A stretch of 64,000 nucleotides of DNA from Minisyncoccota bacterium (GCA_041659005.1 JBAZZD010000002.1:25817-89816), one strand, 5' to 3'; positions 535 through 41,941 are shown, numbered from the stretch's first letter. Translations and numbers: made by a program. Notes: a model not told the origin generated them from the letters alone.

Positions 535-999
535 ATGAAACAGCCGAAGAATGATTCTAAATATATTTGGACTACGCATGCGTGGGAAAAAATGCAACAG
601 TATGGAATTTCAGAACAGCGAGTAAAACGCATTGTTCGGTTTCCAAAAAGGACGGAGGAAGGAGTCCTTGATGGTGCGGTTGCGGTAATGTCTCCATGCG
701 GGAGATCCGCTGTAGGAAGACAACCATCGCATACAAGTGAGATGTGGGTGATGTATGTTCTTTTTGATGGAAATCAAAAAGGAATTTCGCCTGCCTGCGC
801 AGGCAGGAATGACGAAATTCGAAATCCTAAACAAGAAAAAGAGAAGAAGAATGAGAGGCCACTTGATAATATACAATCCTTTTTAGGAAATACAGGGAAG
901 AGATTTAAAATTATTACGGTGTGGCGTTATCCTGGAGTAAGTCCGGTGCGAGATGCAATTCCTGATGACGTTTTGTCTGAAATTAGAGCATTATTATAA
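535..999 (+). CDS. hypothetical protein, DUF4258-like N-terminus; reading frame passes through a dispersed repeat (782-826)
   Basis: N-terminal YIWTTHAWEKMQQYGISEQRVKRIV resembles the DUF4258 H..ERM..RGI motif. The ORF contains the GC palindrome plus AT-repeat halves. An intrinsic terminator follows. Confidence 0.4.
   Translation: MKQPKNDSKYIWTTHAWEKMQQYGISEQRVKRIVRFPKRTEEGVLDGAVAVMSPCGRSAVGRQPSHTSEMWVMYVLFDGNQKGISPACAGRNDEIRNPKQEKEKKNERPLDNIQSFLGNTGKRFKIITVWRYPGVSPVRDAIPDDVLSEIRALL
782..826. repeat. composite repeat inside ORF 535..999: GAATTTCG + CCTGCCTGCGCAGGCAGG + AATGACGAAATTCGAAAT
   Basis: The 18-bp perfect palindrome (790-807) sits exactly between the two halves of the AATTTCG|AATGACGAA motif seen intact at 441, 53833 and 58842. 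Confidence 0.65.
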
Positions 1000-1008
1000 A
1001 TTTAAAAA

Positions 1009-1040
1009 AGACGCGAAAGATATTTCGCGTCTCTATTTTT
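1009..1040 (+). terminator. rho-independent terminator
   Basis: Hairpin agacgcgaaa-gat-atttcgcgtct followed by ctattttt. Confidence 0.6.
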
Positions 1041-1368
1041 GAAAGAAAAGTTCCCAGAAAAAGAGATGTCGCAGCCTCCACAGGTTTGCACTATTTTTTT
1101 TCTTAATGAAATTAACAAGAATGAGCACATATTTTTGTTTTGGCAATTCCCGTTTTACTGGAATTTCCCTTTCCAACTCATTGTGACATAGTCGACATAT
1201 GTCGATTGTTTCACTATTCTCAAAAAACCTTTTTGGATATATATGGTGTTTTGATTTTACCCGCTCTCCTTTTGTTGTGTATGGTTTGTTACATGCACAG
1301 CAACGGGGAATAAATTTTCTTTTGTGGTGATCTTTTCTTTTTCCATATTTTCTTTTATGACGTCCCAA
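1033..1368 (-). CDS. HNH endonuclease family small protein
   Basis: CCACNKPY...SKHHIYPKRFFENSETIDICRLCHNELE gives the CxxC...HH..P...N...LCxxCH HNH motif; basic N-terminus. Confidence 0.5.
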   Translation of the reverse strand: MGRHKRKYGKRKDHHKRKFIPRCCACNKPYTTKGERVKSKHHIYPKRFFENSETIDICRLCHNELEREIPVKRELPKQKYVLILVNFIKKKNSANLWRLRHLFFWELFFQK

Positions 1369-23464: not shown

Positions 23465-23548
23465 GCGCGGGTGGCGAAATTGGTAGACGCACTACCTTGA
23501 GGTGGTAGCGCTCGCAAGGGCTTGCAGGTTCAAATCCTGTCCCGCGCA
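23465..23548 (+). tRNA. tRNA-Leu (anticodon GAG), CCA not encoded
   Basis: Acceptor gcgcggg/cccgcgc, D-arm with GG, anticodon loop ttGAGgt, long variable arm, T-arm ggttcaaatcc. Confidence 0.85.
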
Positions 23549-23558
23549 CTAATAAAAT

Positions 23559-23586
23559 AACATCCGCAATGCGGATGTTATTTTAT
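23559..23586 (+). terminator. intrinsic terminator after tRNA-Leu
   Basis: aacatccgca-at-gcggatgtt followed by atttt. Confidence 0.55.
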
Positions 23587-23711
23587 GCGGATAGAATTTG
23601 AACGAGGGGTGGGTCGCCCCGCAATGCGGGGCGTGGTTAGCTATTCGAAACCGCAAGGTGTCAGAAAATTTCGTCCGCGAAATTTTGTTCAATTCCCTGT
23701 CCCGCGCACAA
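23587..23711 (+). other. tRNA-like element or pseudo-tRNA with inverted T-arm/acceptor-like ends
   Basis: 3' end tgttcaattccctgtcccgcgca copies the tRNA-Leu 3' end; 5' end gcggatagaatttgaacg is its approximate reverse complement; no valid cloverleaf. Confidence 0.4.
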
Positions 23712-23723
23712 ACAAAAAATATC

Positions 23724-23754
23724 CCGATGAATGGGATTTTTTTGTGTCACACGA
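23724..23754. terminator. bidirectional terminator hairpin
   Basis: atcccgat-gaa-tgggat flanked by aaaaaat and ttttttt. Confidence 0.5.
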
Positions 23755-23900
23755 AAGCGGATTTGAACCGCGGGCTCCCTGTTTTCTTAGCAAATGAAAT
23801 GAGTTTAGAAAACAGCAGTGTCGCATATTATGCGACCCGCAATCTTTGATTTTGAAGCCGTAGGTTTCGAGCACGGCAGCCCAGTAGGTGATTTTACTAA
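23750..23900 (+). other. second, more degenerate tRNA-like element
   Basis: Begins gcggatttgaaccgcggg (same 5' motif family); 3' end ccgtaggtttcgagcacggcagccca is weakly T-arm-like. Confidence 0.25.
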
Positions 23901-23917
23901 ATCATGCGAGAGGCAAA

Positions 23918-23950
23918 TCCCCGCCTATCGGCAGGCAGGCCGTCCTGCGC
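23918..23950. repeat. variant copy of the GC-rich palindromic repeat
   Basis: ccccgcctatcggcaggcagg is a near reverse complement of the 59492 copy cctgcctgccgtaggcagg. Confidence 0.5.
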
Positions 23951-24008
23951 ACTAAAACGCGAAAAGAAAGAATTTTCTTCCCCCTTTTTTTCGTTGTATA
24001 ATAAAAAA

Positions 24009-37942: not shown

Positions 37943-37981
37943 TACGCCTATTATAGTTGAAAAAACGCATAAAAACGTGTT

Positions 37982-38746
37982 TTATTTCCTTGCCATCCAA
38001 TGCAATCTATGACTGCTTAATTTTATACTCTTCGTATTAAATCTTTTACTTATATTTTCTAGGTATATCTTATCTTTAATTTTATTGAAATGAGGAATTA
38101 TCGGAGCTCTCTCGAGAATTTCTATAACCTCATTTATCGAAGGATAAATTTGATAATACAAAAAATATTTTGATTCAATCAACTTCATTCCGGATTGTTT
38201 CAATAACTTCTTTACTGATTTGAGTTTCGTTTCTTGTATTGGATAATTTTGTCCTCTTCCAAAAATTTTCTTTAATTCACTTTTATCTTTTTCACCAATC
38301 GTTTCTTCAAACATAATTCCTTCTTTTTTAAGAACACGTGATCCTTCATTCATAAAATTGATATCTGCAGAAAGTGGACCCCTTGAACTAAAAATAATAT
38401 CAAAATATTCATTTTTGAAGGGTAATTTTCTTCCGTCCTCAATTCGGAAAGTAACATTTTTGATGCCATCATTCTTTTTTTGTTGCTTTGCAGTTTTTAT
38501 ATATTCTTTAAATGGATCAATACCAATAATTTTCTTGAAGTATGGAGAAAGTTTTAGAGTTAATTCTCCAGACCCGCATCCCACATCCAATACGTTAAAA
38601 TTTCTATTTGCATGTTTTTTAAGATATTCAAAAAAATTTGGCTGTTCGCCTTGAGTCAATCTTCCCTGTCCATGGAATTCATATTTTCGATATGTCCTTG
38701 AACTTTTCTTATAAAAATTATTATCATCCTTATCCATAAGCTTCAT
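37982..38746 (-). CDS. class I SAM-dependent methyltransferase
   Basis: VLDVGCGSGELTLKL motif I. Confidence 0.8.
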   Translation of the reverse strand: MKLMDKDDNNFYKKSSRTYRKYEFHGQGRLTQGEQPNFFEYLKKHANRNFNVLDVGCGSGELTLKLSPYFKKIIGIDPFKEYIKTAKQQKKNDGIKNVTFRIEDGRKLPFKNEYFDIIFSSRGPLSADINFMNEGSRVLKKEGIMFEETIGEKDKSELKKIFGRGQNYPIQETKLKSVKKLLKQSGMKLIESKYFLYYQIYPSINEVIEILERAPIIPHFNKIKDKIYLENISKRFNTKSIKLSSHRLHWMARK

Positions 38747-38868
38747 TCTATCAAAAAAACTTCCTCTTCTGCGACGCTCCGCATTTTGGCGAAAACACCG
38801 ATTCTATTTTTTGGCTGCGGGTGTTGGACGATTTTCGAACCAATCTCAAGAGCTTATAATTCTTCTTT

Positions 38869-39396
38869 TTAATATATTTTGAATTCTGATATGTTCAGTA
38901 ATTTTCTAATCTCTGTTGCTTGTTCTGCATTTTTTGTATTTTGTGTCGAAGTTTCAGAATCAAAAAAGGAATTTGATAGAGCCATAAGAATTGTTCCTGC
39001 TTTTAATGCATCTTCTTTTTCCATTTTTATGAGTTTAATAATATAAAAAAATGAATAAAAATTAATGTTGCTTGTTTTTACTTGTAAGAGTGCTGAAAGT
39101 TCCCGTATTCTACTTGAAGCAATTTTGTATTCTTCTTTCATGATGTCGCAAAAAATAGTATTTCCGTAAAAATTTGCATATTTGATTAAATCGACAGCAA
39201 TTTCTTCAACTATCTTTTTTTGGTTATTAATTGGTTTTAAATATTGATTTTCAATTATTCTCTGAAGTGAAAAAATAATTATTGCAATAATTATTGCGCC
39301 GAGAATATTACCGTTTTGCGTAATATATCGAAAACTCAAACCAGAAACAACGCCAGTAATAAAGATTAGAACAAGTAGATATAGATATTTCCTCAT
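38869..39396 (-). CDS. hypothetical membrane protein
   Basis: Two N-terminal TM helices. Confidence 0.45.
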   Translation of the reverse strand: MRKYLYLLVLIFITGVVSGLSFRYITQNGNILGAIIIAIIIFSLQRIIENQYLKPINNQKKIVEEIAVDLIKYANFYGNTIFCDIMKEEYKIASSRIRELSALLQVKTSNINFYSFFYIIKLIKMEKEDALKAGTILMALSNSFFDSETSTQNTKNAEQATEIRKLLNISEFKIY

Positions 39397-39398
39397 TG

Positions 39399-39698
39399 TT
39401 AATTAATTTGTTTATTTTTGTATCGTTTTGCGATGAATCTCGCAAACAATCTCTTGTGAAAAGATGACATTTGTTTTACTGTTTTTTCTGCCTTGCGTGG
39501 GTTACTACTTTGAAAGGCTGCTAATGGTTTAAACCAAGTGCCACGACTTGTATATTTTCCACCCCAACCCCTCATATGCTCGTGCCATCGACGCCAAACG
39601 GGTCTTCGCGTCATTCCAGCATAAATTTGTTTAGATCCATCTGGTCTTGTGCTTTCTCCAAGATATACAGTTCCAGGTTTTGTTTTTTTAAAAAACAT
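39399..39698 (-). CDS. GIY-YIG nuclease superfamily small protein
   Basis: GTVYLGES...KQIYAGMTRRPVWRRWHEH gives the GIY...YIG...R..EH motif. Confidence 0.55.
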   Translation of the reverse strand: MFFKKTKPGTVYLGESTRPDGSKQIYAGMTRRPVWRRWHEHMRGWGGKYTSRGTWFKPLAAFQSSNPRKAEKTVKQMSSFHKRLFARFIAKRYKNKQIN

Positions 39699-39702
39699 TT
39701 GA

Positions 39703-40095
39703 TTATTTCTTATAAATTTCTAATTCAATTTTTTTATCTATATCTAATAATGCCTGCTTCATCTCACTAATGACGTTGTGGTAAAAATCCCTCCTTTTTT
39801 TTGGATCTTTCTCATTTATTAAAAGATCAAAAGCGGAACAGACGTTTTGAGGAAATAGATATAAAAAATCAAAACACATTTCAGCTTCATAGGTTCCATT
39901 TTCCATACCATCTATAAGCTTCTCTTTGTATTCCTTAGTTTTTCTATCTAAGCTCTCCCTTTTATTTCGTAATGATTCAATTATTCTTTCTTTTTGCCAC
40001 TTTTTTAGATCAGAGCGTGAAGATATAATTTGAACTATTATTCCGATTAAACCTCCAATAATAACCCCAGTAAGGCCTATGATTGTTTCCGTCAT
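39703..40095 (-). CDS. hypothetical protein with N-terminal TM
   Basis: TM then charged coiled region. Confidence 0.45.
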   Translation of the reverse strand: MTETIIGLTGVIIGGLIGIIVQIISSRSDLKKWQKERIIESLRNKRESLDRKTKEYKEKLIDGMENGTYEAEMCFDFLYLFPQNVCSAFDLLINEKDPKKRRDFYHNVISEMKQALLDIDKKIELEIYKK

Positions 40096-40426
40096 AACAT
40101 ATATGATAATCTAAAGAAATCAGACTGCAATAAGAGGGGGGCTTTTATGTTATTGTTGACACCAAATGGAGAAGAAATAATAATGTAAGAAGATAGTCTG
40201 ATCTTTGACGTGACAGCACGGGATATAGTTATGCTGAGCTCATATAGAGCTTGGCCAAACTCCAAATAAAAAGGTACAGTGCTAAAAGAAAGAAACCGAA
40301 AAAAGTATGCGGTTTTTTTGTTTTATACTGTGTTGGTTTACGTCGAAAATAGTGCTCATTTTCGACGCGATTCATACTCCTATTTATATTTGCACCTTAC
40401 GGTGCATTCTCCTTCGTTAAATCGGC

Positions 40427-40563
40427 TGCGGGACCGGAGTCGAACGTCGCTCGTAATTCACTCGCTCCCTAAAACCCCTCGGTTTTAGTATTTCCGCCAA
40501 GGAAGACTAAGTGTTCTTCCTTCGCCATCTCCTATTCGAATCCAGTATCCCACAAACGCAAGG
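40427..40563 (-). other. tRNA-like element downstream of tRNA-Gln with tmRNA-like 5' motif
   Basis: Minus-strand 5' end GUGGGAUACUGGAUUCGAAUAGG (CUGGAUUCGA matches the tmRNA D-analog); 3' end UUCGACUCCGGUCCCGCAGCC copies the tRNA-Gln 3' end; 5' and 3' ends are mutually complementary; too short for a canonical tmRNA. Confidence 0.35.
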
Positions 40564-40569
40564 CACAAA

Positions 40570-40600
40570 AATATCCGTTATTAATAACGGATATTTTTAT
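40570..40600. terminator. bidirectional AT-rich terminator hairpin after tRNA-Gln
   Basis: aaaaatatccgttattaataacggatattttt is a perfect palindrome. Confidence 0.5.
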
Positions 40601-40620
40601 TGTGTGCATTGCTGCGGGAC

Positions 40621-40689
40621 CTGGATTCGAACCAAGATTGACGGATTCAGAGTCCGCTGTCCTACCATTAGACGATCCCGCAATTATAT
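40621..40689 (-). tRNA. tRNA-Gln (anticodon CTG), CCA not encoded
   Basis: Minus strand reads gcgggat...gcgga-ctCTGaa-tccgt...cttgg-ttcgaat-ccagg-tcccgc-a; acceptor, anticodon and T stems all pair. Confidence 0.8.
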
Positions 40690-40789
40690 TTGTCCTACCA
40701 TTTTAGTTTATCCGCCGTAGGCGGAATCCCGCAATAACAGGTGAATATTACCAAAAAACCTATATAAACTCAAACCTAACAAACGAGTT

Positions 40790-41941
40790 TCATTTTTTAT
40801 GTGTAATCCCCTCTATACCCCCAAAAAAGAAAAATCTTTTTATATCATAGTCCCTTTTAATTTTCTTTAAATGAAGCGCTACTGCTTTGTCGTATGTAAA
40901 GTTTTTATCTAACAAAAGCTTAGATCCCTTAACTATCTCTGAGATTTTCTTTTTTAATAATTCATCAGAGACACAAATTGCTTTTTTGCCTTTATCTAAT
41001 AACTTATTACATTTCTTGTCCTTATCCATCATTGAAGGGTAAGAACCACATTTTGGAAGTACCGAATAAAATGGTAAATCATTAAAAAAGTATGCGGGCC
41101 AACGACACGTAGCAATTTCAAGCCAAGGAGTTCCCACAAGTGGAGGAATAAATGCAAAACCTGTGTGAGGTGAGATAAAAACGTCACATGTTGCAATAAA
41201 TGCTATTTGGTTCCATATGCCAACATCATAAACAATTTCAGCATTTGGTAATTGGTTTATTAGAAGATTTATTCTTACTAAAGAAAAATCACTTGTATCT
41301 GTTCTCCTATTATTACTTTTGCTTACGCCAGTAAAGTAAATTTTTAGATTTGGAATTGATTTGAAGAGTGCAAGACAAATTTTTAACCACATATCAATGC
41401 TCGGACTCTGTTTGGCGCCCGCAGAACCGCCAAGCATAATACAAATTTTCGGACCCCTATGTTTAAATTGTTTAGCAAATTTCTTTGCTTCTTTTGGAAT
41501 TGGAAGTGTAACTTTTGGATTAGGAACTATAGGCAAAATACTACTTTTGTGATATCCACTTTGTTCAACATATCCCTTATCAATTTTTGCGATTAGATGT
41601 TTATCAAGTATTTTATGTGCATTAATAAGATCTACGTCGTCATAGTCGAGGTTAAAATGACGAGCTCGATTATCAATACTGATATAATCCCATTTTTTTG
41701 GAATTTGTTGTATTGATTTTGCTTGTTTTCCAGATTCTTTAATTTCTTTTAACGATACGGAATATACCCTTTTTATCCACGGACAAGCTCTTGCTAATTC
41801 AACGGGAGAATCTGCATTGAGAATTAAATATATTTCTAAGTTTTTATTTGCTAGAAAATATGCCTTCGTAATTTTCAGAGGTTCAATAGCATGTCCTACT
41901 GGACGGTAGTATAGCCAGTTTACGAGAAGTTTTTTCTTCAT
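40790..41941 (-). CDS. glycosyltransferase family 9-like protein (heptosyltransferase fold)
   Basis: CIMLGGSAGAKQSPS...DVFISPHTGFAFIPPLVGTP resembles GT9 C-terminal motifs. Confidence 0.55.
   Translation of the reverse strand: MKKKLLVNWLYYRPVGHAIEPLKITKAYFLANKNLEIYLILNADSPVELARACPWIKRVYSVSLKEIKESGKQAKSIQQIPKKWDYISIDNRARHFNLDYDDVDLINAHKILDKHLIAKIDKGYVEQSGYHKSSILPIVPNPKVTLPIPKEAKKFAKQFKHRGPKICIMLGGSAGAKQSPSIDMWLKICLALFKSIPNLKIYFTGVSKSNNRRTDTSDFSLVRINLLINQLPNAEIVYDVGIWNQIAFIATCDVFISPHTGFAFIPPLVGTPWLEIATCRWPAYFFNDLPFYSVLPKCGSYPSMMDKDKKCNKLLDKGKKAICVSDELLKKKISEIVKGSKLLLDKNFTYDKAVALHLKKIKRDYDIKRFFFFGGIEGITHKK

Follow-up and report, generated by a model that had tools for sequence, protein, structure and literature searches.

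Small structured cassettes behind tRNA genes of Patescibacteria: a probable family of miniature, non-coding insertions specific for tRNA 3´ ends

The window analyzed here is a 64,000-nt stretch of a Minisyncoccota bacterium genome (GCA_041659005.1, JBAZZD010000002.1:25817-89816), and the element of interest lies directly behind an intact tRNA-Gln(CTG) gene. A first-pass annotation had described this element as a 137-nt RNA resembling tRNA and transfer-messenger RNA (tmRNA). Our analysis points instead to a miniature, non-coding insertion cassette specific for tRNA 3´ ends, probably one of a family of such cassettes in Patescibacteria. To judge by sequence, the host is a chromosome of the Candidate Phyla Radiation (CPR, or Patescibacteria) and Nomurabacteria-like, since the best relatives of the neighbouring MFS gene come from Paceibacterota/Nomurabacteria metagenome-assembled genomes (≤70% identity); secA, rplI, def and fmt are among the housekeeping genes in the window. 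All coordinates are those of the whole window, and the tRNA-Gln, the cassette and their neighbours are read on the minus strand. Following the tRNA are a bidirectional terminator, an inverted copy of ~20 nt of the tRNA end, three hairpins and a direct copy of ~20 nt, as follows:

40611..40682, minus strand: tRNA-Gln(CTG), intact (ARAGORN; Rfam tRNA, 61.8 bits)
40567..40598, unstranded: perfect 16+16-nt palindrome (100% complementary) with an A-tract and a T-tract, resembling a bidirectional intrinsic terminator
40535..40554, minus strand: arm 1, the tRNA-Gln 3´ end as an inverted copy, TGTGGGATACTGGATTCGAA, holding the 'tmRNA-like' decamer CUGGAUUCGA (11/11 complementary to the T-loop/T-stem)
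40496..40525, minus strand: core hairpin 1, with an 8-bp stem, AAGGAAGA/UCUUCCUU, and a closing GC (minimum free energy (MFE) structures)
40469..40488, minus strand: core hairpin 2, CUAAAACC GAGG GGUUUUAG, preceded by the conserved junction GGCGGAAAUACU (MFE structures)
40446..40468, minus strand: core hairpin 3, imperfect, with tandem G.A mismatches (MFE structures)
40425..40445, minus strand: arm 2, the tRNA-Gln 3´ end as a direct copy, GTTCGACTCC-GGTCCCGCAGC, the distal cassette boundary (19/21 versus the tRNA)

The source copied in both arms is the last ~21 nt of tRNA-Gln, from the T-loop to C74. The element core (40554..40425) starts with TGTGGGATACTGGATTCGAA and finishes with TTCGACTCCGGTCCCGCAGC. 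Arm 2, which reads GTTCGACTCCGGTCCCGCAGC from 40445 to 40425, is identical to the tRNA 3´ end at 19 of 21 positions and includes an 11-nt exact direct repeat, GGTCCCGCAGC, found at 40611-40621 (tRNA end) and 40425-40435 (element end). Within arm 1, CTGGATTCGAA is complementary at 11 of 11 positions to TTCGAATCCAG, which comprises the tRNA-Gln T-loop and 3´ T-stem; reverse-complemented, arm 1 agrees with the tRNA 3´ end at 17 of 21 positions and with arm 2 at 13 of 20. Each arm was nearer to the tRNA than to the other arm in all six elements compared. Only 12 nt of spacer lie between the terminator palindrome and arm 1; the palindrome makes up the proximal portion of the cassette and lies at the center of a larger palindrome of ~100 nt. 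The sequence features claimed in the first-pass annotation, namely the tRNA-Gln, the palindromic terminator, the start, the end nearly identical to that of tRNA-Gln and the pairing of the two ends, are thus all present. Its start at 40563 takes in 9 nt of spacer; the tRNA-like part begins at 40554.

Upon folding, arms 1 and 2 paired to form a rod of ~19 bp closing the three hairpins (MFE -56.2 kcal/mol, z = -3.9); none of 200 shuffles folded as well as the Gln element, and a second computation gave z = -4.5. The strongest structure at the locus is not this rod but a single hairpin formed by the 106 nt from the T-loop to arm 1 (40640..40535), which joins the tRNA 3´ half, the terminator and arm 1 (-34.2 kcal/mol, z = -10.4, folded under DNA parameters). 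The two strands of the Gln element differed markedly, with -53.4 kcal/mol for the tRNA-sense versus -34.4 kcal/mol for the antisense strand and four versus no G.U pairs, and the tRNA-sense strand folded better in 11 of 14 elements. A promoter scan of the minus strand at the element gave no promoter-like site.

We examined the same site in relatives, using ~1.2 Mb of related DNA as comparison sequence. Metagenomes scanned with the opening 40 nt of tRNA-Gln returned 12 contigs, 10 of which carry the identical 72-nt tRNA-Gln with wholly different 3´ flanks. The closest relative (L062/L074) shares 89% nucleotide identity with the window from the tRNA through the MFS gene, and the product of the upstream gene, a conserved glycosyltransferase-like protein of 383 aa, is 94% identical. 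This relative does not have the element, and its homology to the window ends at 40607, ≤4 nt from the tRNA 3´ end. The first-pass annotation had held that absence from close relatives with an intact tRNA-Gln would tell against an RNA gene and for an insertion; such absence was observed in the closest relative and in other contigs with the identical tRNA. Contigs L064 and L068 carry caagtcgag...ttatc.cgctcgag directly behind the tRNA, and this flank (caagtYgWG..TTAYC.CGCTCGAG) reappears after the last copy of the tRNA end in L067, where it follows two cassettes, and in L072, where it follows one (20-26 of 30 nt identical), making these contigs a pair of empty and occupied sites. Empty alleles thus exist alongside occupied ones behind one and the same tRNA, and the cassette is an insertion polymorphism at the tRNA 3´ end in which the tRNA end is duplicated. 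Relatives reached through the neighbouring glycosyltransferase-like gene (P0008, P0015 and P0016) had no syntenic tRNA-Gln.

Tandem arrays of two cassettes were found in L067 and behind the tRNA-Leu of the window, where the first-pass annotation had already noted the same type of element; both Leu elements share the architecture of the Gln cassette:

23465..23549, plus strand: tRNA-Leu(GAG), with two tandem cassettes behind it (ARAGORN, Rfam)
23550..23709, plus strand: Leu cassette A, of the Gln-cassette type, with arm 1 GCGGATAGAATTTGAAC, three hairpins and arm 2 GTTCAATTCCCTGTCCCGCGCAC (repeats, folds, alignment)
23710..23952, plus strand: Leu cassette B, of a second core type, with arm 1 GCGGATTTGAACC, the core and ...GAGAGGCAAATCC...CCGTCCTGCGCAC

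In Leu cassette A, the terminator palindrome spans 23552-23586 and the element proper 23585-23709; in Leu cassette B, the terminator lies at 23721-23737, the element at ~23757-23952, and GCGGATTTGAACC is the exact complement of the Leu T-loop. The core of Leu cassette B (type B, TGGATTCGAACCGCGGG...GAAGGTTTCGA...GAGAGGCGAATCCAGGTCCCGCAGC) recurs with Gln-matched arms in L065, L072 and L073. The second cassette of L067 (L067 e2) is of the same type as the window Gln cassette (type A), to which it is ~70% identical over the full 186 nt from the tRNA end to arm 2, an alignment that takes in the terminator-proximal AATGCACACAAT. L069 retains only the proximal half of a type-A cassette, and its terminator-proximal segment is 72% identical to that of the type-B cassette in L065; since these two belong to different core types, the units are mosaic. 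At least three core types recur. The cassettes stack in tandem, recur as mosaic units, and keep the tRNA intact while giving it a terminator.

Cassettes were found in Patescibacteria contigs behind seven isoacceptors, their arms always matching the local tRNA:

Gln-CTG: window, L065, L067, L069, L072, L073
Gln-TTG: L008, L009; L079-85, inverted arm only
Leu-GAG: window, L086
Lys-CTT: L008
Lys-TTT: L010
Arg-TCT: L022
Arg-GCG: L075, L076

Their common order is terminator, complement of the acceptor 3´ strand, complement of the T-stem/T-loop, hairpins and direct copy of the tRNA end, often with a hairpin exactly at the acceptor/T-stem junction within the inverted arm. The inverted arm in L008 is complementary to its own tRNA at 21 of 21 positions, and where the T-stems of L008 and L009 differ, both arms track the local tRNA. 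One arm is absent in some members (L069, L079-85 and L009). Nothing similar was seen in the non-CPR loci examined. We also noted two small recurrent motifs. A mini-hairpin NNN-UACU-NNN (GGC/GCC, GUG/CAC, GCG/CGC) that covaries across genomes stands immediately before the T-stem 3´ copy in Gln-TTG and Lys cassettes (L008 7984-8116, minus; L009 6916-7050, minus; L008 19829-19868, plus; L010 6985-7012, plus). The 11-mer GAGCGAAGCGA, which contains GCGAAGC, a sequence known for its unusually stable DNA mini-hairpin, occurs six times in the ~1.2 Mb versus ~0.6 expected, and five of the six sites lie in CPR tRNA-flanking modules (L022 14674 and 14751, L009 6989, L065 26, L088 1202).

A four-way junction is common to the three type-A members (window Gln, L067 e2 and Leu cassette A). 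The 8-bp stems of hairpin 1 are unrelated in sequence and all paired (AAGGAAGA/UCUUCCUU in Gln, GGGAAAAC/GUUUUCCC in L067 e2, CGCCCCGC/GCGGGGCG in Leu A), both sequence and pairing are kept in hairpin 2 and the junction GGCGGAARUAYU, and hairpin 3 varies yet stays paired, forming perfect 8-9-bp hairpins in the alignment of L067 e2 and Leu cassette A. In the L008 and L009 orthologues, a block of ~30 nt is nearly identical while the hairpin stems change with compensation. A covariance model (R1) built from the three type-A elements and searched over 0.6 Mb scored the Gln element at 120.5 bits and Leu cassette A at 101.7 bits, both of them training members, and beyond its three training sequences found one weak type-A-like copy, in L072 (24.6 bits). 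With three full members of type A, the evidence from covariation is qualitative. Still, the paired variable stems, the conserved junction and the strand asymmetry argue that the cassette is not decaying junk, and it seems that the tRNA-sense strand matters in some single-stranded form, whether RNA or DNA. The weak copy in L072 (6794-6906, plus strand) is a degenerate element ending in CCAGGTCCCGCAGCC, upstream of and inverted to tRNA-Gln; in this contig, outward-facing copies of the tRNA end thus stand on either side of the tRNA gene and its promoter, which hints at a past inversion.

The decamer CUGGAUUCGA, which we take to be present in the 5´ region of E. coli tmRNA and presumably common to enterobacterial tmRNAs, together with the 5´ acceptor strand and 3´ end resembling those of tRNA-Gln, would suit a tmRNA in miniature or degenerate form, or else a tRNA pseudogene. 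Like some tmRNAs, the element has this 10-nt string, acceptor-like pairing of its ends and a large insert between them. However, the searches the first-pass annotation had proposed left it unmatched: ARAGORN, including its tmRNA mode, reported only tRNA-Gln and tRNA-Leu in the window; no Rfam tmRNA or tRNA model matched the element at the gathering threshold across the window or at E≤10 with lax filters across 40200-40900; and a tRNA cloverleaf had no match on 40425-40563 even at E≤10. Low-scoring Rfam matches were to microRNA and small RNA models aligning to the long hairpins, and the elements in the tRNA-Leu region likewise had no ARAGORN or Rfam match. The tRNA-derived parts are confined to the last ~21 nt and their complement. 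A T-arm cannot form because no strand upstream of GUUCGA is complementary to CUCCGG, position 3:70 is U.G in a Gln-type acceptor (U1:A72) where the alanine identity pair would be G3:U70, and the ~130 nt, short of the ~260-400 nt of a tmRNA and about one third of its length, hold three simple hairpins with neither a tag frame nor pseudoknots. By comparison, contig L005 of a relative in the Patescibacteria encodes a canonical 384-nt tmRNA with a tag peptide, whose 5´ region, GGGGAUGUCAGGCAUCGAC, has GUCAGGCAUCGAC instead of CUGGAUUCGA at the position of the motif. The earlier remarks that the element is too short for a tmRNA and has no G3:U70 pair were thus borne out, and the proposal of a functional tmRNA-like or tRNA-like RNA was not.

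What the motif does follow is the neighbouring tRNA, being AAUUUGAAC after tRNA-Leu and GGAAUCGAA after tRNA-Gln(UUG). After tRNA-Leu, whose T-loop is UUCAAAU, the corresponding sequences are GAAUUUGAAC and GGAUUUGAACC, the latter its exact complement. Because the motif complements each local T-loop, the 5´ part of the element is an inverted copy of the tRNA 3´ end and not a D-loop analogue, and the occurrence of the tRNA end in both orientations accounts for the 'tmRNA motif' as well as for the complementary ends. The tmRNA or tRNA-pseudogene reading is refuted, and we leave it practically no chance. Other candidates were rejected as well. A 5´ part copied directly from the acceptor 5´ strand and T-arm, conceivable for the palindromic TTCGAA, is excluded by the Leu sequences AAUUUGAAC and GGAUUUGAACC, complementary to UUCAAAU. 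For a retroelement primer-binding site, GCGUUU and not UGG precedes arm 1, and no reverse transcriptase was present in the open reading frames (ORFs) scanned. Group I introns occur in Patescibacteria tRNAs (PMC13011429), but for an intron-bearing tRNA there was no Intron_gpI match, the insert is ~90 nt and the 5´ part is inverted, as in the Leu sequence AAUUUGAAC.

We also compared the cassette with known mobile systems. As at attachment (att) sites, the tRNA 3´ segment is repeated directly at the edge of the insert, the tRNA is intact (61.8 bits) and relatives carry empty-site alleles with the breakpoint at the tRNA end. The nearest known counterparts are integrase-less cis-mobilizable elements and, at tRNA sites, att duplications and arrays of remnants; in structure, the cassette comes closest to integron attC arrays and to CTX phage with its folded attP. 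The tRNA-site att arrays of tyrosine-integrase islands, Prochlorococcus tycheposons and streptococcal cis-mobilizable elements (CIMEs) share with the cassettes insertion exactly at the tRNA 3´ end with the tRNA left intact, a direct tRNA 3´ repeat, tandem stacking, empty and occupied alleles, and integrase-less derivatives consisting of ends only. In contrast to these, the cassettes are only 130-250 bp and non-coding, carry an extra inverted copy of the tRNA end that creates the ~100-nt palindrome, have a conserved multi-hairpin core and occur at seven tRNAs with no cognate integrase found. As a feature inserted at tRNA sites, the cassette is unusual in its miniature, structured, target-mirroring design.

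Integron attC sites and the attP of CTX phage work as folded single strands. Integron cassette arrays, including clusters of attC sites lacking integron integrases (CALINs), are likewise made of small units arrayed at one fixed site, in which attC is an imperfect inverted repeat of 60-140 nt, conserved in structure and not in sequence, whose outer arm repeats the primary insertion site and whose long forms have a branched terminal structure. The Gln cassette is also a structure-conserved, sequence-variable imperfect inverted repeat arrayed at one site, but it has no RYYYAAC/GTTRRRY cores, intI or ORF cargo, and its site is a tRNA end and not attI; its arms read TGTGGGAT...TTCGAA and GTTCGAC...CCCGCAGC, with GTTCGAC breaking GTTRRRY at position 4, and no IntI was encoded near it among the 30 window ORFs scanned. 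The folded CTX attP, used by integrative mobile elements exploiting Xer (IMEX) with XerCD at dif, has two inverted target-like copies tens of nucleotides apart that can fold into a target duplex, as the tRNA end and arm 1 might do through their 106-nt hairpin, and the integrated order it predicts (target, rest of element, inverted copy, loop, hybrid copy) is alike; the cassette differs in targeting a tRNA end, in being ~40 times smaller and in coding for nothing. Miniature transposable elements with inverted repeats (MITEs) and REPINs are also small, non-coding, hairpin-rich and multicopy, with inverted ends (~19 nt and imperfect here) and, presumably in the cassettes too, an enzyme acting in trans, whereas the cassettes are found only at tRNA 3´ ends and their ends copy the target rather than a fixed transposase-binding sequence. 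A DDE-type MITE was rejected, as there is no target-site duplication (the flanks are ...GCGTTT on one side and AGCCGATT on the other). In the literature, we found no description of the cassette family, the searches turning up group I tRNA introns and tRNA-site island arrays. The Rfam, phage, plasmid and viral collections held no match to the cassettes, with BLAST of the cassette against the phage and plasmid collections and scans of viral contigs with tRNA, type-A and type-B patterns all returning nothing.

These comparisons suggest how the cassettes, which have no ORF, might move. The units would move, or would have moved, by site-specific recombination at the tRNA 3´ end, with the duplicated tRNA end as the attachment core and a recombinase acting in trans. 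A circle consisting of core, terminator, arm 1 and hairpins would, upon integrating at the core, give exactly the order observed, and the cassette would restore the tRNA 3´ end and supply a terminator, so that the tRNA would stay functional. The inverted arm together with the tRNA end, the ~100-nt palindrome, may represent a folded or cruciform copy of the target duplex, which is the weakest step of the model. A folded single strand or a cruciform could be the substrate, to judge from how small the cassette is, from the palindrome, which restores the target duplex out of a single strand, and from the strand asymmetry. Hardest to account for is that a single family occurs at so many tRNAs, each time with arms that match in full; arms copied from or matched to the target fit this better than a classical sequence-specific integrase does. 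Two serine recombinases among the comparison contigs could be candidates for the trans-acting enzyme: a Resolvase-domain gene in L088 (~875-1111, minus strand), which starts ≤~130 nt from the 3´ end of tRNA-Leu(GAG) (1244-1328), and a split large serine recombinase in L079-L085, ~2.8 kb from tRNA-Gln(TTG).

Several points weigh against a mobile cassette. No integrase or transposase was encoded among the 30 window ORFs scanned, which include the genes beside both tRNAs, and in the other loci none stood consistently beside the cassettes. Neither an excised form, nor a circle junction, nor a phage- or plasmid-borne copy was found. A double-stranded circle of ~186 bp is an awkward substrate for recombination, and one family at seven tRNAs is unexpected for a sequence-specific integrase. 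The covariation of the core hairpins and the folding bias toward the tRNA-sense strand also fit a functional RNA, and the polymorphism could reflect loss, by deletion between the direct repeats, rather than gain.

The same fold might belong to a small structured RNA that imitates the acceptor/T-stem half of a tRNA and is made by read-through from the tRNA promoter and tRNA-like processing; the arm 1/arm 2 rod would then stand in for the acceptor/T-stem stack and the three hairpins would carry the function. We consider this unlikely. The four-way junction, conserved in the three type-A members with hairpins 1 and 3 unrelated in sequence yet paired, the sequence conservation of GGCGGAARUAYU and hairpin 2, the compensating stems of L008 and L009 beside their shared block, the excess of G.U pairs and folding energy on the tRNA-sense strand and the folding z-scores of -3.9 to -4.6 would all suit such an RNA, but a strong bidirectional terminator separates the tRNA from the element, which has neither room for nor sign of a promoter of its own. 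The element is also missing from the closest relative, as from other genomes that carry this tRNA, arm 1 complements the tRNA better than it does arm 2, the tRNA/arm-1 hairpin is far stronger than the rod, no T-arm is possible, the tRNA and tmRNA models do not match, and L069, L079-85 and L009 have one arm only. Alternatively, the element might be an inert scar with no activity of its own, the att debris of larger prophages or islands once integrated at tRNA-Gln and since mostly deleted, which we regard as quite improbable. In its favour, integration classically leaves a direct repeat of the tRNA 3´ end behind, the stretch between tRNA-Gln and GrpB varies and holds a different set of genes in each of the window, L074 and L068, the serine recombinase gene of L088 lies directly behind tRNA-Leu(GAG), and partial tRNAs and remnant arrays at tRNA sites are known for tycheposon islands (10.1101/2020.12.28.424599). 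Random decay, however, would not repeat an architecture of ~130-190 bp with intact hairpins and junction across genomes and tRNAs, the inverted copy of the tRNA end with its inner boundary always at the T-loop is left unexplained, and no distal copy of the tRNA end bounds larger islands. The cassette as one end of a larger island was rejected on this last ground, since no such copy was found at the 36-40.4 kb island of the window or at the islands of L074, L073, L068 and L064. The mobile-element attachment scar that the first-pass annotation had offered as an alternative thus holds up as an attachment feature and not as a passive scar, given a recurrent, structurally conserved family. We therefore retain the insertion cassette as the probable reading. 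The more specific proposal, that Patescibacteria harbour integrase-less, structure-defined mini-cassettes of 130-250 bp that home to many tRNA 3´ ends through a folded copy of the target, with the arms and not an integrase doing the targeting, or else an RNA mimic of the tRNA top half made by terminator read-through, is tentative and in our judgment rather doubtful.

The surroundings of tRNA-Gln showed further variation. Upstream of the gene lies a partial copy of its 5´ end:

40691..40733, minus strand: 5´ tRNA-Gln fragment, TTGCGGGAT, a 25-nt hairpin insert and TGGTAGGACA (repeats; compared with the upstream regions of L073, L062 and L067)

This fragment occupies the position of the tRNA start in relatives, its hairpin insert resembles the type-A junction, and a promoter-like TTGAGT (40773-40768) N17 TAATAT (40750-40745) stands just before it. 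In L067 and L071 too, roughly 19-20 nt from the tRNA start are present as a copy upstream of the intact gene; small insertions are thus found on the D-loop side as well, displacing the intact tRNA downstream. A hairpin module, CGTCGAAA...TTTCGACG, often preceded by AAAATCA, recurs in tRNA-Gln 3´ flanks independently of the cassettes (window 40341-40367; L070 5321-5344 and 5443-5466; L073 9293-9317). Between tRNA-Gln and GrpB lies a variable island (window ~37980-40100, minus strand, versus L074 5315-8388). In the window, it has 30% GC and encodes a SAM (S-adenosylmethionine) methyltransferase, a weak DpnII/MboI-like ORF and two small ORFs; the 89%-identical relative L074 has six different genes in the same interval, including Fic and DUF6680, and in L068 GrpB adjoins an inverted tRNA-Gln. 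An exact-protein look-up of two window proteins returned no record.

Collectively, these observations remove a false lead, the element being no tmRNA in miniature and no new gene for a tRNA-like RNA, and they mark the tRNA 3´ flanks of small CPR genomes as sites of fast turnover that gather tiny structured non-coding cassettes with arms copied from the local tRNA. Left unrecognized, such cassettes will mislead the annotation of RNA genes and tRNA pseudogenes. Should the cassettes move as units, few site-specific mobile DNAs known would be smaller, and they would offer a handle on recombination in Patescibacteria and might serve as strain-level markers.

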